This document shows, piece after piece, positions 3,253 through 38,006 of a stretch of DNA of 49,026 nucleotides. Both the position numbers and the translations under genes were made by a program. The notes under the pieces were generated by a model. The model worked only from the letters and a program-made list of their open reading frames with translations, was not told the origin of the DNA and searched no databases. The stretch is from an uncultured Candidatus Saccharibacteria bacterium (GTDB taxonomy: Bacteria; Patescibacteriota; Minisyncoccia; Phycocordibacterales; Zambryskibacteraceae). How positions within the stretch are numbered: position 1 is the stretch's first letter; each line of letters starts with the position of its first letter. The stretch spans positions 1 to 49,026 of the forward strand of contig CAZUDK010000004.1 in assembly GCA_964618905.1 (NCBI GenBank), read 5' to 3'.

Positions 3253-3819
3253 TCAGAATATACTGAAAAGACCCAAAATGATTGCTGAATACAAAAACAC
3301 AAAGACGAGATTACCAAGAAAAATCACAGGCAAAACATTTTTTATTTTATAACCGAAAAAAGCCATAGGTATCAGCAGCACTTCATTCGGCAGAGGTGCA
3401 AAAGCGGCAAAGAAAAATAGCACCAAAAGAGGCAGAAAAATATGTTTTACCCTGAGTGAATCAAGCCTTACTCTTATATTGCGGCCCCAAACATCGAAAA
3501 GCACTCTTCTGCCGAAGCTGGCGAATGCGTATACCAGAGAATCGGCGACTGTCATGCCGAAAGTTATTATCAGAGCACAAATCCAAAAGCTCAGTCCTGC
3601 CTCCAGAAAAAGAGGCAAGAAAGCCACGGCCGGTATAGGAACAGCTAAATTGAAACCGCTTATGAAAGAGACTATAAGCACGCCCAGATAACCAAGATTC
3701 TCTACAGTCTGACGCACCAGCTCATTCTCTCTGGCTAGATGAGCAAGGAAGAATGCCAAAGCAAAAATGGCGAGCAATGCCAGACCTTTCATTAGAAGCT
3801 GTCTTCTTATTTTAAACAT
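3253..3819 (-). CDS. DedA/VTT (SNARE-associated)-like membrane protein
   Basis: 188 aa, 5-6 TM segments. The layout and the motif GYLGVLIVSFISGFNLAVPIPAVAF resemble the VTT/DedA family. Confidence 0.6.
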   Translation of the reverse strand: MFKIRRQLLMKGLALLAIFALAFFLAHLARENELVRQTVENLGYLGVLIVSFISGFNLAVPIPAVAFLPLFLEAGLSFWICALIITFGMTVADSLVYAFASFGRRVLFDVWGRNIRVRLDSLRVKHIFLPLLVLFFFAAFAPLPNEVLLIPMAFFGYKIKNVLPVIFLGNLVFVFLYSAIILGLFSIF

Positions 3820-3880
3820 CTGATTAATTTATCTATAATATCATGGCTCATAAGAGGGATAATGTGATAAACTGGCAATC

Positions 3881-4753
3881 GTGAAATCAGCAATTCAGAA
3901 CAAGTTGAAAAATCCGACTCTACAGATAGTGATCGCGGCTCTTCTTGCGGGACTTGTCGGCTACAGCGTTTATTCTGATGCCAATCTTAGAGGTAAGTAC
4001 AAATCTCTCCTTGTTGAAAAATCTCAACTGGAAGAAAAATTAGACGCAACGACACAAGAAAAAGAGGCTTTAGAAAAACTTGCCAAACAACAAGAAGAAA
4101 CAATCAACACTTTCGCTCCTACCATCAAGGAAATCACCGGAACCGTCGGCGATCTCGAGAAGCTTGCTAATACTGACGAAGAACTGCTTAAAAAATATTC
4201 AAAAGTTTATTTCTTAAATGAAAATTACATACCATCCAAACTTGAAGAGATAGATGAGAAGTACCGATTTGGAGAAGGCAGTAACCGCCTGATACATGCA
4301 GATGTTTGGCCTTACCTTGAAGATCTTTTAGAAGATGCTAGTGATGCTGGAATAGATCTGCGAATAGCTTCGGCCTTCCGCTCATTTGATGCGCAAGCAT
4401 CCTTAAAGGCAGGATACACAGTCCTTTACGGCTCCGGAGCAAACCAATTCTCTGCAGATCAAGGTTATTCAGAACATCAGCTTGGCACAACAGTGGACTT
4501 CACTACTCCGGCAGTAGGCGGAGTCTTTGACAGCTTTGAATCTGACCCGGCTTATAAATGGCTCAATGAAAATGCTTATAAATACGGTTTTGTTCTCTCA
4601 TATCCGAAAGACAATGCTTACTATAAGTTCGAGCCGTGGCATTGGCGCTTTGTTGGCACAGATCTAGCAGAAGACCTCCAAAAAGAAAACAAGCACTTCT
4701 ACGATCTCGAACAGCGAGACATAGACAAGTACTTGATTTCAATATTCAACTAA
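3881..4753 (+). CDS. D-alanyl-D-alanine carboxypeptidase, peptidase M15B (VanY-like)
   Basis: GTG start and N-terminal TM helix. Motifs SAFRSFDAQ, SEHQLGTTVDF and PWHWRFVG match the zinc-binding VanY/M15 signature. Confidence 0.85.
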   Translation: MKSAIQNKLKNPTLQIVIAALLAGLVGYSVYSDANLRGKYKSLLVEKSQLEEKLDATTQEKEALEKLAKQQEETINTFAPTIKEITGTVGDLEKLANTDEELLKKYSKVYFLNENYIPSKLEEIDEKYRFGEGSNRLIHADVWPYLEDLLEDASDAGIDLRIASAFRSFDAQASLKAGYTVLYGSGANQFSADQGYSEHQLGTTVDFTTPAVGGVFDSFESDPAYKWLNENAYKYGFVLSYPKDNAYYKFEPWHWRFVGTDLAEDLQKENKHFYDLEQRDIDKYLISIFN

Positions 4754-8547: not shown

Positions 8548-8618
8548 TGCCCGATCGTCTAATGGCAGGACGCTTGGTTTTGGTCCAAGAAATTGGGGTT
8601 CGAGTCCCTGTCGGGCAG
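8548..8618 (+). tRNA. tRNA-Gln (anticodon TTG)
   Basis: Acceptor TGCCCGA/TCGGGCA, anticodon arm CTTGG-TTTTGGT-CCAAG, T loop TTCGAGT, discriminator G. CCA is not encoded (followed by CCG). Confidence 0.9.
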
Positions 8619-8619
8619 C
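8601..8619 (+). repeat. 19-nt direct repeat, left copy (CGAGTCCCTGTCGGGCAGC), inside tRNA-Gln
   Basis: Exact match to 10253-10271. Spans T-loop position C56 to one base past the discriminator. Confidence 0.9.
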
Positions 8620-8709
8620 CGTTTAGAGCGTCGTACGAGACGCGTTCATACATCTCTTTTCAAGCTCTGCATAGAGTGGTATTGTTGGTGCCAGCGATAC
8701 AATCCAACC

Positions 8710-9279
8710 ATGAAAGAAATTGAGATTTTGATAGAAGTTAAGAGTGATATAGAAACGGCCAAGAAAGCTCTTGAGCAGTTTGAATTTGTTGGTGCTAAAG
8801 AAGTTATTGATGTCTACTTCACAAGCCCATTTAGGAAAGATTTGCAGCCTGATGAGAGCGGCAGATTAAATAATTGCTACAGAATTAGATCAAAAGATGG
8901 AAAGGCATCTGTTGCCTACAAAGTAGATCACTTCGATAACAACACACAGTGGTCTCATTCTGATGAACACGAAACTGAAATTGGAGACTTTACAACTGCG
9001 CTTGAGATTAATCGCCATCTTGGATTTGAAGAACTCGTAAGAATTGATAACACGAAGTACACCTACATGACTCGTGATTACGAAATAGTGCTGGAGGATG
9101 TAAAGAATCTCGGACTTTTCCTTGAGGTTGAGAAACTTGAGCAGGTCCCAGATGAAAAAGTTGCCGAAACAAAGGAGGAAATTAGAAACTTTCTTAATAC
9201 TCTCAATATTGAATTCGGTGAGGAACAGAATGCTGGAAAGCCAGAGTTAATGATAAGGAAGATTAAGAATCATGGATAA
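8710..9279 (+). CDS. CYTH-domain protein (class IV adenylate cyclase / CyaB-like triphosphate tunnel enzyme)
   Basis: Start set at MKEIEILIEVK (ExExK signature), because the track start 8593 lies inside tRNA-Gln. Also CYRIRSKDGKASVAYK and LGLFLEVE, both typical of CYTH. Confidence 0.75.
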   Translation: MKEIEILIEVKSDIETAKKALEQFEFVGAKEVIDVYFTSPFRKDLQPDESGRLNNCYRIRSKDGKASVAYKVDHFDNNTQWSHSDEHETEIGDFTTALEINRHLGFEELVRIDNTKYTYMTRDYEIVLEDVKNLGLFLEVEKLEQVPDEKVAETKEEIRNFLNTLNIEFGEEQNAGKPELMIRKIKNHG

Positions 9280-10030
9280 TGAGCAAATAAGTTTGTTGCT
9301 TGAGTCTAATGCCAAATTAGCAGAAAGTATTGCAAAATCATTACCTTCATTAATTGAATCGTTAGCAAAGACTAAATTTAAATATACTAGCAAAGCACTT
9401 TTAGGTTTACTTTCCAGAAGTGGGTATCTAAATAGTGCAATTCTTAGTGAATGCAATAACAGGAATGTGTATTCTTCCGCGGTTTTATCTCGATCTATTA
9501 TTGAGCATAATTTTCGACACCTTTACATATACGTTAGAGCATTAAATGAAAATGACGACTCAGTTGGAGAGCGATATTGTAAAAACCTTAAGGCAAATGA
9601 GGATCTTGAATCATTTGAAAAAATCAATAATTACAACAAGGTAGTCTATCCAGAAAAAGATAAATTAAGCACTAAGGGTGATAATAATAATGCAATTCGA
9701 GAGTCAGGAAAGGAATTCCGCATCGAGCAAATATTTTTCTATCTGGTTTCTAATAACAACGATAGTATTAAAGAGATTGAACAATATAAAAAAGAGTACC
9801 TTCTGGGCCGTTTAGAGCAATATACAAATTTTTCTTCTTCAGTACATGGTGGACCGTTTGGTGCAGCAACACTCGAGAATTCCCACCAGAGTAATATTGA
9901 GAATGATTTATTAAGATTCGCACAGAATAGCAACGAGCTACATAAAAGCTTAGTGGAAGCAACTTATTTATTTGGATATTTAATGGACGGCACATTAAAA
10001 GATTGTTACGAGGAGATCAAAAAAATTTAG
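9272..10030 (+). CDS. hypothetical 252-aa helical protein, start overlaps the CYTH stop (ATGGATAATGA)
   Basis: An 8-nt overlap with the upstream gene suggests translational coupling. Low G+C. Motifs RSIIEHNFRHLYIYVRAL and SSSVHGGPFG; family not recognised. Confidence 0.6.
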   Translation: MDNEQISLLLESNAKLAESIAKSLPSLIESLAKTKFKYTSKALLGLLSRSGYLNSAILSECNNRNVYSSAVLSRSIIEHNFRHLYIYVRALNENDDSVGERYCKNLKANEDLESFEKINNYNKVVYPEKDKLSTKGDNNNAIRESGKEFRIEQIFFYLVSNNNDSIKEIEQYKKEYLLGRLEQYTNFSSSVHGGPFGAATLENSHQSNIENDLLRFAQNSNELHKSLVEATYLFGYLMDGTLKDCYEEIKKI

Positions 10031-10080
10031 TGCTCGAGACGCGTCGCTTTGAGTGCTAAAATAAGCTCAATTCCGTCAAT

Positions 10081-10253
10081 CTGGGCTTGGCCGATTAAGG
10101 TCCCAGCCCGAGACGGCCAGCAATGATTTGCAAAAACAGCTGGGAGCTGTTTGAGCAAAGCATCATTGCTTGTTTCGAGAGGGACGAGAAAGCCGGAGCG
10201 CGGCGGAGTGAGGCGGGGTCGAGCAAATTTTCAGCAGAAAATTATGCGTGACC
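10081..10253 (+). ncRNA. candidate structured element, copy A (strand of expression not established)
   Basis: Hairpins CTGGG..CCCAG (10081-10106) and AGCAATGAT...ATCATTGCT (10119-10170, with inner AAACAGCT-GGG-AGCTGTTT), then GCCGGAGCG, GCGGGG and P3 = GGTC GA GCAAATTTTC-AGCA-GAAAATT(A)TGC GT GACC (10217-10253). Confidence 0.5.
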
Positions 10254-10271
10254 GAGTCCCTGTCGGGCAGC
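10253..10271 (+). repeat. 19-nt direct repeat, right copy (tRNA-Gln 3' fragment)
   Basis: CGAGTCCCTGTCGGGCAGC identical to 8601-8619. Followed by CAA, the trailer seen after three other tRNAs in this window. Confidence 0.9.
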
Positions 10272-11718: not shown

Positions 11719-12915
11719 ATGTTGAAAACTAGATTCATTATTGCCAGCGCCGTTTTAATCACTCTTTCTTGGGTGCCTACCTCTACGGTCTCAGCAGCCC
11801 CAAAATGCAATTTCGACAGAGACTTGGAAATCGATACTGTCGGTGAAGATGTAAGATGTCTGCAAAAATACTTGAATGAGTCTGGATATGTTATAGCAGC
11901 CTCGGGAGTCGGCTCACCCGGCAGAGAAACTAATCAATTCCAAGGCCTTACAAAGAAAGCTGTCCAGGCTTGGCAGGCCGCTCACGGCGTGAGTGCTACA
12001 GGTTATTTCGGTCCTATGTCGCGAAAAAAATATGCCGAGCTGCAATCAGGCTTACAACAGACACCTGCAAGCCCTCAGAACAACCCGTCCGTTGCAAATC
12101 TTATAAGCCAAATAACAAATCTTCAAAATCAAATTGCTGCAGCCAAGCAATCTGCCTCACAGACCCATGCAGAACCAAAAGCAAATGAAAAATCTGCAAA
12201 AGAAGCGATAAAGAAAGCACTCGATTTCATAGAAGAAGCGGAGGATCAAATAGATGATGGCGAGGGTGACATAAACGCAGCAAAGGCTGAAATTGAAAAT
12301 GCTGATGAAGATCTTGATGATGCAGTGGTTGCATATTTTGACGGAGACTATGAAGAAGCTCTCGAATCAGCAGAGAAAGCTTATGACAATGCCGAAGATG
12401 CTTTTGAAGAAGCGGGCGGTCAATCTGAGGAAGAAGAGACGGAAGACGCGGTGAAAGAAGCAAAGAATCAAATCGAAGATGCATGGGACACTATAGATGA
12501 AGCCAATGATGACGGAGAAGACACAGACAAAGCCGAAGATATACTCAAGGAGGCTGAAGATGTACTCGATGAAGCTAAAGACAATCTCGATTCAGAAAAC
12601 TACAAAAAAGCACAAGACTTAGTGGATGATATAGAAGATCTTGTCGATGATGCTATAGATTCCATAGGAGAAGCCGAAGAAGATGTTAAGGACGCAATAG
12701 ACGACGCCAGAGATGCCATAGAGGATGCAGATGACTTGATAGATGAAGCTCGTGATGATGGAGATGACACTGATGAAGCAGAAGAGTTGCTCGATGATGC
12801 AAGAGACACTCTCGATGAAGCTCTCGAGGAATTAGACGACAAGAACTATGACGATGCACAGGATCTTGCTGAGAAAGCTGAAGATCTCGCATATGATGCG
12901 ATTGACGAAATCTAA
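11719..12915 (+). CDS. secreted PG_binding_1 protein with long Asp/Glu-rich repeat tail
   Basis: Signal peptide. CLQKYLNESGY...LTKKAVQAWQAAHGVSATGYFGPMSRKKY is a peptidoglycan-binding-1 motif. The C-terminal ~240 aa are acidic helical repeats. Confidence 0.7.
   Translation: MLKTRFIIASAVLITLSWVPTSTVSAAPKCNFDRDLEIDTVGEDVRCLQKYLNESGYVIAASGVGSPGRETNQFQGLTKKAVQAWQAAHGVSATGYFGPMSRKKYAELQSGLQQTPASPQNNPSVANLISQITNLQNQIAAAKQSASQTHAEPKANEKSAKEAIKKALDFIEEAEDQIDDGEGDINAAKAEIENADEDLDDAVVAYFDGDYEEALESAEKAYDNAEDAFEEAGGQSEEEETEDAVKEAKNQIEDAWDTIDEANDDGEDTDKAEDILKEAEDVLDEAKDNLDSENYKKAQDLVDDIEDLVDDAIDSIGEAEEDVKDAIDDARDAIEDADDLIDEARDDGDDTDEAEELLDDARDTLDEALEELDDKNYDDAQDLAEKAEDLAYDAIDEI
12475..12912 (+). repeat. 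two tandem ~70-aa acidic repeats within CDS 11719..12915
   Basis: DDGEDTDKAEDILKEAEDVLDEAKDNLDSENYKKAQDLVDDIEDLVDDAIDSI versus DDGDDTDEAEELLDDARDTLDEALEELDDKNYDDAQDLAEKAEDLAYDAIDEI. Confidence 0.7.
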
Positions 12916-20380: not shown

Positions 20381-22561
20381 ATGACAAAACTTTTAATTGT
20401 AGAGTCGCCGTCAAAAGCGAAAACCATAGAGAAGTATCTCGGCAAAGACTTTCGCGTAGTCGCTTCTGTCGGGCATATAAGAGACTTGCCTAAATCAAAC
20501 AAGGCAGCTATCGACATAGCTGGTGGATTCGTGCCACATTATGAAATCTCCAAAGGTAAGGAAAAAGTCGTTTCAGAAATTAAGAAGCTTTCAAAGAAAG
20601 CTGACGAAGTAATACTGGCCACAGACCCTGACCGCGAAGGAGAGGCTATCGCCTGGCATATTAAAGAAGCTGTGGGGCTTAAAGACCCAAAGCGTATAGT
20701 CTTCCATGAGATCACAAAAGAGGCGGTTCAAGAAGCTCTTGAACATCCTCGCAAAATTGATAAAGACTTAAGGGAGGCGCAGGAAGCGCGCAGAGTACTC
20801 GACAGGCTTGTCGGTTACGATCTTTCCGGCCTTATCTGGAAAAAAGTTCGATACGGCCTTTCGGCAGGACGAGTACAATCCCCTGCTCTTAGAATCATTA
20901 TGGAGCGCGAGCGAGAGATCAGAGCTTTTGTTCCTGAGAAATTCTGGACTATCTCGGCCATTCTGCAAAACAAAGACAAAGAAAATCTTGAGTTCATCTG
21001 CTCTGAAGAACCGAAGGATGAAAAAGAAGTCGAGAGAATAATAAATAGCGGCAAGACTGGAGCGTGGAAAGTTACTGATATTAAAGAGACTCAGGTAGCG
21101 CGCGCTCCGCGCGCGCCCTTCATAACCTCCACCCTCCAGCAAGCGGCAAGCTCCAGGCTTGGCTTCTCGCCTTCCCGCACTATGGGTATTGCTCAGAAGC
21201 TCTATGAGGCAGGTCATATAACTTATATGAGAACCGACTCGACAAATCTCGGCAAACAAGCTCAGAGAGATATAGCTTCTCTTGTTAAAAATAAATACGG
21301 CGAGAATTACTTTGAATCTCGATCATTTACAAAAAAATCCAAGAATGCCCAGGAAGCACATGAAGCAATCCGCCCGACTAAAATGTCTTTGGAATCCGCC
21401 GGCGCTACAGAAGAACAGAAAAAACTTTACAGACTTATCTGGCAGAGAACTATTGCAAGCCAAATGAAATCTGCTCAAATAATGCGCACTAAGGTAACAG
21501 CCAACATAACTGGCTCAGGCGAACCTGTTCCTGACTTTTGGTTAAACGGCTCTCGCATTATATTCGACGGCTGGCTGAGATCTGACCCGCACGCCGCAAA
21601 AGAAGATGTGCTTCTCCCTGCTTTGGAAAAAGATGAATCCTTAAATCTGATTAATATAAATTCAGAAGAAAAAGAAACCACGCCTCCGGCAAGATATTCG
21701 GAAGCAGGTCTTGTTAAAGAGCTCGAGAAACGAGGCATCGGCCGGCCGTCCACTTACGCATCTATTATAAAAACTCTCGATGACAGAGGTTATGTAGAGA
21801 AAATAAACAAAGCTCTGCACCCTACTGACACCGGAGAAGTAGTAAGCTCATTTCTTGAAGAGCATTTTCCAAATTATATAAGCGACTCCTTCACCGCATA
21901 CATGGAAGACGAGCTCGATGACATAGCAGCCGGCGACCGCACTTATAAAAAGACTTTGACTGATTTCTATGAGCCGTTTATCAAAGATATTAAATCCAAA
22001 GAAAAGATAGAAAAGGCTACCAACCTCGGAGAAGCACCAGAGGATATTAAATGCCCGACCTGCGGCGGACCAATGATCATAAAACTCGGCAAAGGCGGAA
22101 AATTCCTTTCCTGCAAACGCTTCCCTGAGTGCCAAGGTGCAAGGACGATGGAAGGCAAGGAACTCGAAGGTCCAAAAGATACAGGAGAGCTTTGCCCGAA
22201 GTGCGGCAAAGCCAATCTGGTAACAAGAGAAGGCAAATTCGGATTTTTCACAGCATGCTCAAGATATCCTAAGTGCAAATATGTAAAGAAAGATGAAGAA
22301 CAAGAAAAAGCGAACTCTACAGGTATTCAGTGTCCGGTCTGCAAAGAAGGATACATGAGCGAGCGCCGCGGCAGATACGGAGTCTTCTACTCATGCTCGA
22401 ATTATCCGGACTGCAAATATGCCATCAAAGCCAAGCCTACAGGCAATATCTGCAAAATGTGCGGAAGTTTGATGATGGAAGGCACAAAAACGATACCGGA
22501 GAGGTGTAGCGATAAAGCATGCCCGAATCATCGGCCAGACAAACTTAACTCGGACAAATAG
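20381..22561 (+). CDS. topA: DNA topoisomerase I with C-terminal zinc-ribbon repeats
   Basis: Start set at MTKLLIVESPSKAKTIEKYLG (TOPRIM). ITYMRTDS is the active-site Tyr region. Four CPxCG...C..C zinc ribbons at the C-terminus. Confidence 0.95.
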   Translation: MTKLLIVESPSKAKTIEKYLGKDFRVVASVGHIRDLPKSNKAAIDIAGGFVPHYEISKGKEKVVSEIKKLSKKADEVILATDPDREGEAIAWHIKEAVGLKDPKRIVFHEITKEAVQEALEHPRKIDKDLREAQEARRVLDRLVGYDLSGLIWKKVRYGLSAGRVQSPALRIIMEREREIRAFVPEKFWTISAILQNKDKENLEFICSEEPKDEKEVERIINSGKTGAWKVTDIKETQVARAPRAPFITSTLQQAASSRLGFSPSRTMGIAQKLYEAGHITYMRTDSTNLGKQAQRDIASLVKNKYGENYFESRSFTKKSKNAQEAHEAIRPTKMSLESAGATEEQKKLYRLIWQRTIASQMKSAQIMRTKVTANITGSGEPVPDFWLNGSRIIFDGWLRSDPHAAKEDVLLPALEKDESLNLININSEEKETTPPARYSEAGLVKELEKRGIGRPSTYASIIKTLDDRGYVEKINKALHPTDTGEVVSSFLEEHFPNYISDSFTAYMEDELDDIAAGDRTYKKTLTDFYEPFIKDIKSKEKIEKATNLGEAPEDIKCPTCGGPMIIKLGKGGKFLSCKRFPECQGARTMEGKELEGPKDTGELCPKCGKANLVTREGKFGFFTACSRYPKCKYVKKDEEQEKANSTGIQCPVCKEGYMSERRGRYGVFYSCSNYPDCKYAIKAKPTGNICKMCGSLMMEGTKTIPERCSDKACPNHRPDKLNSDK

Positions 22562-22588: not shown

Positions 22589-22677
22589 TTTTTGTGAGAC
22601 GAAAGCGATGTTTCGCCAGCAGACGAAACCGCGAGTCGGGGTCGCGGAAATTTCTGAGCGACGGCGAGGAAATTATC
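22589..22677 (+). ncRNA. candidate structured element, copy B (truncated, not next to a tRNA)
   Basis: GCGATG, then P2 GTTTCGCC-AGCA-GACGAAAC (22610-22629), then CGCGAGTCGGGG, then P3 GGTC GC GGAAATTTC-[14 nt]-GAAATT(A)TC. The 3' closing strand is replaced by the parB stop region. Confidence 0.45.
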
Positions 22678-23690
22678 TAAATAGAAAAATTCGCCACCGA
22701 GTAGAGGTCTTCGTCCTCTGGTTCATCTTCGGCCATAACCTTCTCTTCCTCCGTCAAAGGCTGAGCATTGCCTGCTATTTCATTAACATTCATTTCTGAT
22801 ATTTCTTTATCTACATCCACAAAGCCGCTGCCTCCTTCTTTCTCAGCTGCACCTGTAAGCTTGTCGAGAAGCGCACGCAGATCTTCCTTTGAGAAAAAGT
22901 CTATAGTAACCCTTCCGCCTCCCTCACCTTCACCCTGACCGGCTTTGGCAGATGTTTTTTCTATACGGACTCGCGTGCCAAGAGTTTCTTTGAACTTGTC
23001 TTCTATATCTATAAGTTCCGGGTCTATAAGCTTACGAGCTCTTTCAACTGCGATATGCCTGGCTATGTTTTCCGATTCCCTGACATTAAGCTTCTTGAAA
23101 ATTATTTCCTTGAAAAGTGTTTCCTGCTCTGAAGGTCTGTCTATGAGCATCATAAGAGGACGAGTATGGCCCTCTGTTATCTTGCCTTCCGCGAGAGCCT
23201 GAGTGATATAATCCGGCAGCGTTAAAATCCTCAAAGTATTGGTAACATATTCGCGGCTTTTGCCAACCTTTTTTCCTATTTCAGCATGCTTGAAACCAAA
23301 CTCCTTAACTAACTTATCAAAAGCTTTAGCTCTATCGACAGGATTCAGATCTTCGCGCTGAATGTTCTCGATGATAGCAAGCTCGAGCTTCATCAAATTG
23401 TTCTCTTCACCGGAACGGATAAGAACAGGAACCTGCTGGAGACCGGCAAGTTTAGAAGCCCTAAGTCTGCGCTCTCCGGCAATGAGTTCATACTCTGTGG
23501 CCAAGCCGCCTGCAGGAGTTTCAACCTCTTTGCGCGTTACTACAAGAGCCTGAAGAACACCGTACTGCCGTATGGAATCTGCTAGAGATTTTAGCTGAGC
23601 TTCGTCAAATTCCCTGCGAGGCTGAAACGGATTCGGTTTGATTTTATTGACCTCGATCCAGAATATTGAATCATTATAGAAATGCGACAT
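22677..23690 (-). CDS. parB: ParB/Spo0J chromosome partitioning protein with acidic C-terminal extension
   Basis: IEVNKIKPNPFQPRREF, GERRLRASKLAGL, HTH, and dimerisation region. About 60 extra acidic residues at the C-terminus. Confidence 0.9.
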   Translation of the reverse strand: MSHFYNDSIFWIEVNKIKPNPFQPRREFDEAQLKSLADSIRQYGVLQALVVTRKEVETPAGGLATEYELIAGERRLRASKLAGLQQVPVLIRSGEENNLMKLELAIIENIQREDLNPVDRAKAFDKLVKEFGFKHAEIGKKVGKSREYVTNTLRILTLPDYITQALAEGKITEGHTRPLMMLIDRPSEQETLFKEIIFKKLNVRESENIARHIAVERARKLIDPELIDIEDKFKETLGTRVRIEKTSAKAGQGEGEGGGRVTIDFFSKEDLRALLDKLTGAAEKEGGSGFVDVDKEISEMNVNEIAGNAQPLTEEEKVMAEDEPEDEDLYSVANFSI

Positions 23691-23738
23691 GGCTAGATTT
23701 TAACATCAAATTGATGTAGTTTGTAGTGGAAAGTATTT

Positions 23739-23821
23739 GCTGGAGTGATGGAATGGTAGACATGCAGCACTCAAAATGCTGTGGCCTCACGGCCGTGTGG
23801 GTTCAAGTCCCACCTCCAGCA
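23739..23821 (+). tRNA. tRNA-Leu (anticodon CAA)
   Basis: Acceptor GCTGGAG/CTCCAGC, anticodon loop CTCAAAA, long variable arm TGGCCTCACGGCCGTG, T arm GTGGG-TTCAAGT-CCCAC, discriminator A. CCA not encoded. Confidence 0.9.
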
Positions 23822-23824
23822 CAA
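23804..23824 (+). repeat. 21-nt direct repeat, left copy (in tRNA-Leu-CAA)
   Basis: CAAGTCCCACCTCCAGCACAA versus 23935-23955 CAAGTTCCACCTCCAGCACAA (20/21 identical). Confidence 0.9.
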
Positions 23825-23935
23825 GCGAAGCTTGTGGGTGGGCTTGAAAGGCGGAGCGATGTTTTGCTAGCAAGCAAAACCGCGAGCCGGGGTCGAGAAA
23901 ATTTGCGAGCGATGGCGAGCAAATTATTCGTGACC
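23822..23935 (+). ncRNA. candidate structured element, copy C (most compact complete copy)
   Basis: P1 CCCACC..CACAAGC-GAA-GCTTGTG-GGTGGG (uses the tRNA 3' end); GGCGGAGCG (23850-23858); P2 GTTTTGCT-AGCA-AGCAAAAC (23861-23880); CGCGAGCCGGGG; P3 GGTC GA GAAAATTTGC-[12 nt]-GCAAATT(A)TTC GT GACC (23891-23935). Confidence 0.55.
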
Positions 23936-23955
23936 AAGTTCCACCTCCAGCACAA
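23935..23955 (+). repeat. 21-nt direct repeat, right copy (tRNA-Leu 3' fragment)
   Basis: Begins at the same T-loop position (C56) as the Gln repeat. Directly follows GTGAC. Confidence 0.9.
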
Positions 23956-24047
23956 CATTGATTGACTTTAGTATGATAGTATGACATTGTTCAGATAGAC
24001 ACACGGTACTCACGCCTCCATTCAACGCACCTTCCACAGAGGACATC

Positions 24048-37559: not shown

Positions 37560-37632
37560 GCCCCTATAGCTCAGCCGGTAGAGCAGACGCCTCTTAAGCG
37601 TAAGGTCCTAGGTTCGATCCCTAGTGGGGGCA
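37560..37632 (+). tRNA. tRNA-Lys (anticodon CTT)
   Basis: Acceptor GCCCCTA/TGGGGGC, anticodon loop CTCTTAA, T arm CTAGG-TTCGATC-CCTAG, discriminator A. Followed by CAA. Confidence 0.9.
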
Positions 37633-37783
37633 CAAGAGTGCAAAAATATGCTCTGCTGCATGTTTTTGCACTCTTGTGCCGGGCGGAGCGTTACCGAGCC
37701 TGTAGGCGAGGTCGCGAGCCGGGGTCGAGAAATTTTGCGAGTCCTGCCGGCAGGCAGAGACAACGAGCAAAATATTCGTGACC
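37633..37783 (+). ncRNA. candidate structured element, copy D1 (complete)
   Basis: P1 is a 16-bp perfect hairpin, CACAAGAGTGCAAAAA (37631-37646) / TTTTTGCACTCTTGTG (37663-37678). Then GGGCGGAGCG, a P2 hairpin 37691-37712, CGCGAGCCGGGG (37713-37724), and P3 GGTC GA GAAATTTTGC-[28 nt]-GCAAAAT(A)TTC GT GACC (37723-37783). Confidence 0.55.
37652..37690 (+). repeat. 39-nt exact direct repeat, copy 1
   Basis: TCTGCTGCATGTTTTTGCACTCTTGTGCCGGGCGGAGCG is identical to 37804-37842. Confidence 0.95.
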
Positions 37784-37867
37784 ACAAGACCTTACAGAAT
37801 CGTTCTGCTGCATGTTTTTGCACTCTTGTGCCGGGCGGAGCGATGTTATGTTCAAACATCAAACCGC
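37784..37867 (+). ncRNA. candidate structured element, copy D2 (5' part only, tandem to D1)
   Basis: CACAAGA (from 37783), 14 unrelated nt, then a 39-nt exact repeat of D1, then GCGATG-hairpin-AAACCGC as in copies B and C. Breaks off 13 nt before tRNA-Leu(TAG). Confidence 0.45.
37804..37842 (+). repeat. 39-nt exact direct repeat, copy 2
   Basis: Identical to 37652-37690. Confidence 0.95.
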
Positions 37868-37880
37868 AATTATATACAAA

Positions 37881-37965
37881 GCTGGGGTGGTGAAATTGGT
37901 AGACACGCTTGCCTTAGGAGCAAGTGCCGCAAGGCGTGGAGGTTCAAGTCCTCTCCCCAGCACCA
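37881..37965 (+). tRNA. tRNA-Leu (anticodon TAG), CCA encoded
   Basis: Acceptor GCTGGGG/CCCCAGC, anticodon arm CTTGC-CTTAGGA-GCAAG, long variable arm, T loop TTCAAGT, A-CCA end. Confidence 0.9.
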
Positions 37966-38006
37966 GAAATTTATTATAAATTTTAATATCCAATATACTT
38001 TTTAGA

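Follow-up and report, generated by a model that had tools for sequence, protein, structure and literature searches.

What is the sequence that separates tRNA-Leu(CAA) from a second copy of that tRNA's own 3' end, at positions 23739-23955 of this patescibacterial contig? We analysed the whole stretch of 49,026 nt (the window), in which an earlier note, made from the letters alone, had described an unclassified structured element behind this tRNA and at three further loci. Patescibacteria are a very large, mostly uncultured group whose genomes are tiny and hold little spare DNA, and five copies of the element, which has no description in the RNA library or the literature searched, lie within this one 49-kb window. 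Our tentative answer is that the sequence belongs to a family of non-autonomous insertion elements of Patescibacteria that encode a tRNA-like structured RNA. The unit behind tRNA-Leu(CAA), which we call copy C, is made up as follows:

23739-23822, + strand: tRNA-Leu(CAA), the intact host gene of copy C (ARAGORN; Rfam tRNA model, 58 bits)
23804-23824, + strand: X1, the segment of tRNA-Leu(CAA) from T-loop position 56 to the discriminator, plus CAA (sequence; repeat search)
23822-23834, + strand: short hairpin CAAGC-GAA-GCTTG, in the place of hairpin P0 of other copies (sequence)
23830-23846, + strand: X', an imperfect reverse complement of X2, which pairs with 23935-23951 to give helix P1 (minimum free energy (MFE) fold of 23823-23956)
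23847-23849, + strand: AAA junction between P1 and P2, part of a conserved (G)AAAG junction (flanks of ~50 copies)
23850-23934, + strand: core of copy C (covariance model R1, 96.7 bits)
23850-23888, + strand: P2 domain (RNAalifold; pair counts for helices 1-4)
23889-23891, + strand: invariant GGG linker between P2 and P3 (invariant alignment columns)
23892-23934, + strand: P3 hairpin, with a G.U wobble, a bulged A at 23926, a variable tip and the GTGAC end (pair counts; cmsearch)
23935-23955, + strand: X2, CAAGTTCCACCTCCAGCACAA, the 3' strand of P1 (20/21 direct copy of X1)

The direct repeat, with which the earlier note had begun, was recovered both in the sequence and by a repeat search. Our analysis adds to that note the inverted copy X', a second class of units at the CCA end, copies after topA with no tRNA nearby, variation in presence and absence between relatives, and an exact 19-nt tRNA-Gln 3' end behind another copy in the window (copy A). 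In copy C the X'/X2 duplex has a predicted energy of -19.4 kcal/mol, and the AGCGAAGCTT motif of the short hairpin at 23822-23834 recurs at two of the loci inspected elsewhere (L139 and L235). L-numbers denote these loci outside the window, each of which was inspected over at most 8 kb.

A covarying two-hairpin core

The core of ~85 nt consists of the P2 hairpin domain, GGG and the P3 hairpin, with GTGAC at its end. Alignment of 43 cores with MAFFT followed by RNAalifold gave 27 base pairs, 19 of them with compensatory double changes. A covariance model, R1, was built from 43 related sequences, and when 71 copies were aligned to it 95.2% of the cells paired, compared with 73.1% in shuffles (0 of 500 shuffles reached the observed value); this alignment is fitted to the model and is biased toward the structure, and the independent MAFFT/RNAalifold result agrees with it. 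Sliding the partner by 1-3 columns as a control left 28-47% pairing. Across the 71 copies, 24 of the 26 pairs have changed on both sides, so that the covarying stems proposed earlier from four loci hold for the family.

Within P2, a GGC/GCC helix (P2a) with a varying middle pair (G-C, 44 copies; A-U, 11; C-G, 7) leads to an internal loop of G-N-A opposite G-A, with A6, G47 and A48 invariant. A GC/GC helix (P2b) follows, then a 2-nt bulge and a freely covarying hairpin (P2c); copy C has this same succession, with AU as its bulge and GTTTTGCT-AGCA-AGCAAAAC as its variable hairpin. P3 is closed by GUCG(C/A)G... paired to ...CGUGAC and has changes on both sides in 14 of the 15 pairs of helix 5. 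It carries a G.U wobble in 64 of 71 copies, a further pair is found as G-C (39 copies) and as G-U (26), and its tip ranges from 4 to ~40 nt. The linker GGG is invariant throughout, as is the bulged A of P3, which sits 8 nt ahead of the 3' boundary.

These data refine the layout that had been proposed for the four window loci, GGCGGAGCG, then P2, then CGCGAG(C/T)CGGGG, then P3 and GTGAC. The order stands at all four, except that copy B is without the closing GTGAC and the P2 of copy A is minimal. The 2-nt internal mismatch ascribed to P3 does not hold for most members of the family, in which these positions form a G.U wobble and a C-G pair (GUCGCG/CGUGAC); an A/G mismatch does occur in the GAG variant found in the window.

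The + strand is the better folder, because on the other strand the G.U pairs become A/C mismatches. For copy C and its flanks, the predicted folding energy is -53.6 kcal/mol (z = -4.25) for the + strand and -42.4 kcal/mol (z = -2.38) for the - strand. Judged from base pairing, then, the + strand is the folding strand, in keeping with the earlier proposal that the element folds either as RNA or as a single-stranded DNA site; both of these remain as readings and are weighed below.

Units at the 3' ends of tRNA and tmRNA genes

We searched for relatives of the core with a short motif and with R1. A scan for CCGCGAGYCGGGGTCGMG over 185,579 species genomes gave at least 120 loci. Among the loci listed, the low-GC matches come from Patescibacteria only (Saccharibacteria, Paceibacterota, and Taylor-, Adler-, Kaiser-, Nomura-, Yonath- and Moranbacteria), and the remaining matches listed are chance matches in high-GC genomes. 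In the first 100 sources searched, R1 found 71 copies, all in loci of the candidate phyla radiation (CPR), and a further 16 came from 80 metagenome loci anchored on ParB. The ~85 copies examined overall come from many CPR lineages; further copies, whose absence the earlier note would have counted as a refutation, do exist. Three scans of 2.9 million viral contigs returned no true copy of the core, only chance matches in high-GC DNA. The units are non-coding and ~80-170 bp long, and the same core stands at more than 10 tRNA types and after topA. Nearest-neighbour cores are 85-95% identical, and they lie at different tRNAs in different genomes and lineages.

The association with tRNA 3' ends that the earlier note had described is strong in the family. 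A same-strand tRNA end lies at most 300 nt upstream of 55 of the 79 testable copies, a same-strand tmRNA gene lies within the same distance of 3 more, and an opposite-strand tRNA as sole neighbour was found for 0 of the 79. The tmRNA-linked copies lie directly 3' of the gene (L141 6879-7455, L138 7057-7607 and L139 5811-6351), with smpB upstream in L141, and so the tRNA-like 3' end of tmRNA is used as well.

Two classes of unit could be distinguished. In class 1, which includes copies A and C, GTGAC adjoins X2, a direct repeat of tRNA sequence that starts at T-loop C56, reaches the tRNA 3' end and often continues through 0-20 nt of the trailer; the trailer is copied for up to 20 nt in L176, L214 and L175. 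Exact flank repeats of at least 15 nt (maximum 38 nt) bound 19 copies, at tRNAs for Gly, Asp, Ser, Tyr, Val, Met, Leu and Gln. Ahead of the core, X is repeated imperfectly and in inverted orientation as X'. Pairing of X' with X2 gives helix P1 (9-17 bp), which appears in the MFE folds of most copies in this class. The duplex energy averages -15.6 kcal/mol for cognate X'/X2 pairs and -11.0 kcal/mol for non-cognate ones, a test that is weakened by the similarity of T-arms among tRNAs.

The arrangement of X' resembles part of a tRNA. In L210, L199, L256 and L310, hairpin P0, a 9-bp covarying stem with a CUGC or CUUC loop, splits X' in two: one part, of 7 nt, imitates the 5' strand of the acceptor stem, and the other imitates the 5' strand of the T-stem. 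This split corresponds to the 7/49 junction, the point at which the D and anticodon arms leave a real tRNA. Because X' pairs with X2, the unit amounts to an acceptor/T-arm mimic in which the core replaces the T-loop. In the predicted folds, the class-1 unit is thus a tRNA-like structure that has an acceptor stem, a single arm and a T-stem with the 85-nt core in its loop, while the real tRNA upstream stays complete. The mark of a tRNA-like RNA, a coaxial acceptor and T-stem helix of ~12 bp followed by a discriminator, is matched in class 1 by the predicted P1, built of the mimic strands X' and X2, but not in class 2.

Class 2 comprises copy D of the window and at least 14 other loci, at which the unit abuts the discriminator/CCA end of the tRNA. 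The tRNA here reads N73-C-A-A-G, a long hairpin begins at position 72, the conserved core AGCG starts exactly 51 nt past the tRNA end, and the unit ends in GTGAC|CA-C. From these boundaries we infer that class 2 represents insertion inside an encoded CCA.

Some loci carry a different core in the same architecture, with the acceptor part of X', P0, the T-stem part of X', an AAG junction and X2, and R1 does not detect them. Such sites lie at ~271-460 of L256 (after tRNA-Tyr), in L301 (after tRNA-Leu, - strand) and in L274 (after tRNA-Tyr), and L274 also holds an inverted fragment of the alternative core. The tRNA-like scaffold may be more general than the R1-type core.

Possible mobility and processing, and the competing explanations

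The locus of copy C offers a comparison of filled and empty sites. The tRNA-Leu(CAA)-parB arrangement is kept in ~62 related metagenome loci (ParB 58-84% identical), and in nearly all of them the next gene begins 10-60 nt past the tRNA, with a single X and no element. An R1-type copy occupies this position in L243 and L310 only, and the unit in L301 has a different core; the three filled tRNA-Leu sites differ in core subtype. In L243 the insert of 81 nt lies between exact repeats of 25 nt, 6 nt of which belong to the trailer. Arrays are also found. L307 carries two complete tandem units [X, terminator, X', core] after tRNA-Trp, and L199 has a nested array of three or four degenerate units (3650-4160, - strand) after tRNA-Arg(GCG), with X fragments (CCTACCG) between the units. 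One L199 unit is without the P2a 5' strand, at a junction where X, CCGGGAGC, resembles the core, GGCGGAGC. Direct X repeats explain precise loss and the growth of arrays; by themselves they are no proof of new gain.

No mobility gene accompanies the copies. Pfam scans of the window's open reading frames (ORFs) found no recombinase, and the region is core chromosomal, with topA, parB, dprA, serS, clpB, infB, smc, miaA and RNase R among the genes identified. Clustering of ORFs from 52 loci showed no recurring mobility gene and no family near more than 7 copies; the families identified near copies are housekeeping ones (SmpB, RelA/SpoT, ParB, TopA, the CCA-adding enzyme and S20). Across the window and the 52 clustered loci, no integrase, reverse transcriptase or transposase goes with the element. 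In L158 (1189-3840), two IS3-family transposase ORFs stand right after tRNA-Ser(TGA) and separate the tRNA from the element by 2.7 kb; this long insert is a secondary IS3-family insertion. With respect to expression, promoter-like sites lie ahead of tRNA-Leu and tRNA-Lys, and the interval between tRNA and element has neither a promoter-like nor a terminator-like site.

We compared the element with known families. In Rfam 15, only the tRNAs of the window pass the gathering threshold, nothing overlaps the element in 23700-24000 at E <= 10, and nothing recurs at the element in 7 loci at E <= 5; the full-text literature yielded no description of it. The earlier note had matched the motif to no known family, and no clear Rfam or insertion sequence (IS) match turned up here. 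Self-cleaving ribozymes (hammerhead, twister, pistol, hatchet, HDV-like and hairpin) gave no Rfam match, and the junction strands of the element are AAAG, GGG and none, not the CUGAUGA and GAA of a hammerhead core. The internal loop of P2 has neither the geometry nor the consensus of a kink-turn. IS200/IS605 palindrome-associated transposable elements (PATEs) and TnpB guide RNAs were set aside: such elements have similar subterminal hairpins at both ends and a fixed 4-5-nt target, whereas P2 and P3 are unrelated to each other in sequence; no tnpA or tnpB lies near the copies, and there is no IS605-orfB or HEARO match in Rfam. A T-loop intron in a split tRNA does not fit either: the tRNA upstream is complete in every case, and the sequence 5' of the core is X in inverted form rather than a tRNA 5' half. 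For a phage-borne attP, only chance matches came up in the viral contigs. Copy B abuts parB, and parS sites in P2 were considered for that reason; they were rejected, as P2 sequences vary freely. Finally, a snap-back or hairpin-primed origin of X' was set aside, since P0 interrupts X' and X' is imperfect even where X1 and X2 are exactly alike.

Among mobile DNAs, the element appears to work most like a tRNA-targeting integrative element, minus the integrase that defines one. Both insert at the T-loop or CCA end of a tRNA or tmRNA gene in a fixed orientation, duplicate the tRNA 3' segment and leave the gene intact, and the direct repeats are plain here (20/21 at copy C, 19/19 at copy A). Here, however, no integrase gene lies near the copies, the unit is 80-170 bp rather than kilobases long, one core serves more than 10 tRNA types, a covarying two-hairpin core takes the place of arm-type protein sites, and there is an inverted target copy, X'. 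Other small, non-autonomous, multi-copy and structured units are the bacterial miniature repeats with an RNA fold (REP/BIME, Correia, RUP and PATEs) and the eukaryotic tRNA-derived short interspersed elements (SINEs), and SINEs share with the element a tRNA-like part and target duplications of variable length. The element differs from these in having no terminal inverted repeats of its own, a target that is strictly a tRNA or tmRNA 3' end, a tRNA-like part borrowed from the local tRNA, and no known partner transposase or reverse transcriptase. Since integrase, attC boxes and domain V geometry are all missing, and neither Rfam 15 nor the literature gave a match, the family apparently falls outside the known kinds and is undescribed.

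In the reading that we tentatively prefer, the unit would be co-transcribed with the upstream tRNA by read-through from the tRNA promoter, and through its minihelix mimic a discrete tRNA-like RNA would be freed by RNase P, 3'-end processing enzymes and the CCA-adding enzyme. The core could act as a recognition module for an enzyme supplied in trans, a site-specific recombinase or reverse transcriptase encoded elsewhere in the genome, which would join the GTGAC end to the target C56 (or C75), guided by pairing of X' with X. Recombination between X repeats would then produce precise loss and tandem arrays. If the tRNA-like RNA is indeed processed, it would constitute a new abundant RNA class in Patescibacteria; if the element is mobile, it would have a route into essential single-copy tRNA genes that needs no integrase within the unit and does not kill the gene. 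Duplicated tRNA 3' ends and pseudo-T-arms can in addition mislead tRNA annotation and genomic-island finders in metagenome-assembled genomes. Several points weigh against this account. The 71-copy pairing figure carries the structural bias noted above, and sequence alone does not tell an RNA from a + strand single-stranded DNA. Class-2 MFE folds favour an X1/X' hairpin over P1, which means that not every unit has the tRNA mimic. Each tRNA has a different X', and this account does not explain how an element that changes target would acquire a matching one; no insertion enzyme was identified in the loci of at most 8 kb inspected. The patchy presence could be explained by loss alone, through X1/X2 deletion, with no recent gain. 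At the topA/parB position of copy B, which is also filled in L161 (Taylorbacteria) and L162 (Minisyncoccia), the element looks vertically inherited in three genomes, and host-maintained rather than selfish.

Two other explanations are each, in our view, unlikely. The element may be a folded single-stranded DNA recombination site like integron attC or the CTX-phage attP(+), at which a tyrosine recombinase of the host (Xer-like, or an integrase encoded elsewhere) would exchange strands at GTGAC|C56, the X'/X2 stem reproducing the duplex of the tRNA gene's 3' part and the units being cassettes that lack an integrase, may or may not carry cargo, and are inserted at T-loops or CCA ends. Like those sites, the element keeps its geometry while its sequence covaries, conserves an extrahelical base, varies in its terminal loop (4 to ~40 nt), forms arrays of one orientation, as in the cassette-like tandem units each bounded by X in L307, and has no recombinase encoded in the unit or beside the copies. 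The CYTH and DUF5677 ORFs between tRNA-Gln and copy A would suit such cassettes, and the two target positions and the use of tmRNA genes match the integrase sublocations of Williams (2002), who reportedly found that integrase subfamilies use the T-loop and the 3' end of tRNA and tmRNA genes. Yet P3 has GUCG(C/A)G/CGUGAC and a GTGAC|C boundary instead of the attC R''/R' boxes (RYYYAAC ... GTTRRRY, crossover at G|TT), no IntI integrase was found in the window or the loci, and the targets are tRNA T-loops. The conserved G.U wobble and the frequent G-C to G-U changes are typical of RNA, and P0 interrupts X' at the acceptor/T-stem boundary, which fits an RNA cloverleaf and not a mimic of duplex DNA. 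The core's absence from 2.9 million viral contigs also speaks against such a site, as does the identity of X1 and X2 into non-functional trailer at many independent loci, which is hard to reconcile with an X carried from elsewhere. The second explanation is a purely host-encoded, non-mobile functional RNA made from the tRNA 3' trailer, akin to plant mitochondrial t-elements or the 3' external transcribed spacer (3'-ETS) RNAs of E. coli, whose role would be to signal processing or stability or to bind a CPR-specific protein; its patchy distribution would stem from loss by X1/X2 deletion. Co-transcription is plausible, and tRNA-like processing signals have precedent in the plant mitochondrial t-elements, which are said to be known examples. 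t-elements, mascRNA (MALAT1) and the tRNA-miRNA units of MHV68 likewise place an acceptor/T-arm mimic beside a gene on the same transcript, and by this analogy the minihelix of the element could be cleaved by RNase P or RNase Z; in the element, however, an 85-nt core replaces the T-loop, the neighbouring tRNA is copied exactly, trailer included, presence is variable and arrays form. The very high conservation of cores across distant CPR lineages (neighbours 85-95% identical), the topA-parB position kept in three genomes, and an X2 at copy A that stays exact while its neighbour X* decays all favour a host function. That X2 copies up to 20 nt of local, non-functional trailer (L176, L214 and L175) argues for a DNA duplication event and not for selection for mimicry, and a host RNA would also leave to be explained the differing core subtypes at the same tRNA-Leu (the window copy, L243 and L310), the nested and tandem arrays, and the ~60 relatives that manage without the element at tRNA-Leu.

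The other explanations fare worse. Decayed attR scars of integrase-bearing prophages or integrative elements that once occupied these tRNA genes would account for direct tRNA-3'-end repeats around inserted DNA, their classic signature; we regard this origin as highly improbable, with no integrase near any of ~85 copies, units of just 80-170 bp, one core at more than 10 tRNA types and after topA, a core absent from viral contigs, and compensatory covariation of a strength unexpected of decaying DNA or protein-binding arm sites. Scarcely more credible is an intron remnant, degenerate or miniature, of group II-like (or Euglena group III-like) type, with P2 as domain V, GGG as the J5/6 linker, P3 as domain VI with its branch-point A and X' as an exon-binding sequence. 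Order and spacing do fit, from a hairpin with an invariant AGC through a 3-nt linker to a second hairpin, whose invariant bulged A stands 8 nt ahead of the 3' boundary (7-8 nt in domain VI, a feature insufficient for membership on its own), and X' pairs in guide-like fashion with flanking 'exon' sequence. On the other side, the Rfam group II model (RF00029) has no match at E <= 10 or E <= 5, and P2 is no domain V: it bulges by 2 nt on the 5' strand, shows neither the 9-bp plus 5-bp geometry nor the 34-nt hairpin with AGC triad, 3'-strand bulge and GNRA loop, and has loops of AGCA, ACUG and others. Domain I is missing, no reverse transcriptase lies nearby, and no gene is interrupted, since the upstream tRNA is complete. 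A further reading, improbable in our view, makes the core itself a catalytic or self-mobilising RNA, in which X' would guide the joining of ...GUGAC to C56 or the CCA end by reversible transesterification or reverse-transcriptase template switching, and the chimaera would be copied back into the tRNA locus. Were it correct, it would describe a new class of tRNA-parasitising mobile RNA in the smallest bacterial genomes, one that makes tRNA-like RNAs.

The other copies in the window

We ran R1 over the window with filters off and found four full copies and one partial one, all on the + strand; the rest of the window had no further match better than E = 1, where E-values are rough owing to a shortened calibration of the model. 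The copies other than copy C, with the genes and repeats that belong to them, are as follows:

8548-8620, + strand: tRNA-Gln, whose 3' end is duplicated at copy A, 1.6 kb upstream of copy A
10103-10121, + strand: X* of copy A, a degenerate third copy of the tRNA-Gln 3' end, 13/19 (repeat search)
10192-10252, + strand: copy A, a variant with a minimal P2 (R1, 42.5 bits)
10253-10271, + strand: X2 of copy A, an exact 19-nt copy of the tRNA-Gln 3' end (8601-8619)
22598-22682, + strand: copy B, after topA, 3'-truncated at the parB stop codon, with no tRNA nearby (R1, 59.6 bits)
37560-37633, + strand: tRNA-Lys(CTT), host gene of copy D (ARAGORN)
37631-37678, + strand: long hairpin (extended P0) starting at tRNA position 72, CACAAGAGTGCAAAAA...TTTTTGCACTCTTGTG (sequence; fold)
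37682-37782, + strand: copy D, class 2 (putative CCA-end insertion), with a 28-nt P3 tip (R1, 72.3 bits)
37783-37869, + strand: copy E, a second, truncated tandem unit, up to tRNA-Leu(TAG) (repeat search)

At copy A, X* sits 150 nt upstream of X2 and is followed by a hairpin (10123-10163) and, in the predicted fold, by X' at ~10167-10188. X* and X2 have a common trailer that is unlike the present trailer of tRNA-Gln, and for this reason they look like an original pair. X2 matches the tRNA-Gln 3' end at 19 of 19 positions, and the neighbouring X* matches that same end at 13 of 19. The decay of X* beside an intact X2 speaks for selection on X2, which forms the 3' strand of P1. The stretch of 1.48 kb from tRNA-Gln to X* (window 8620-10121) holds a CYTH ORF (8593-9279) and a DUF5677 ORF (9272-10030), and has the look of another insertion without an integrase at that tRNA-Gln T-loop. 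The two ORFs were also considered as a defence system, and neither matches a PADLOC model.

Copies D and E fill the spacer between tRNA-Lys(CTT) and tRNA-Leu(TAG) as a tandem duplication (37631-37869) with a period of 152 nt. The long-hairpin layout of copy D is common to 14 other loci. Copy E, with a partial R1 match at 37837-37869 (12.9 bits), shares 38 identical nt with the copy D unit; the 5' strand of its hairpin is disrupted and its core is gone after P2.

The tRNA ends in the window vary in their following letters. CAAG stands instead of CCA after tRNA-Leu(CAA) (23820-23825) and tRNA-Lys (37631-37636), CCG follows tRNA-Gln (8618-8623), and CCA is encoded at tRNA-Leu(TAG) (37963-37968). 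The CAAG after tRNA-Leu(CAA) and tRNA-Lys may be the 5' end of the inserted unit.

Elsewhere in the window, GC skew tracks gene orientation and gives no clear replichore signal. A 61-nt repeat internal to topA (22232-22430) corresponds to tandem zinc-ribbon domains and is ordinary. Acidic GA-rich repeats (GAWGMNGAAGA-like) occupy 12499-12785, within an ORF (11719-12915) that encodes a peptidoglycan-binding domain and a DUF4398 domain.

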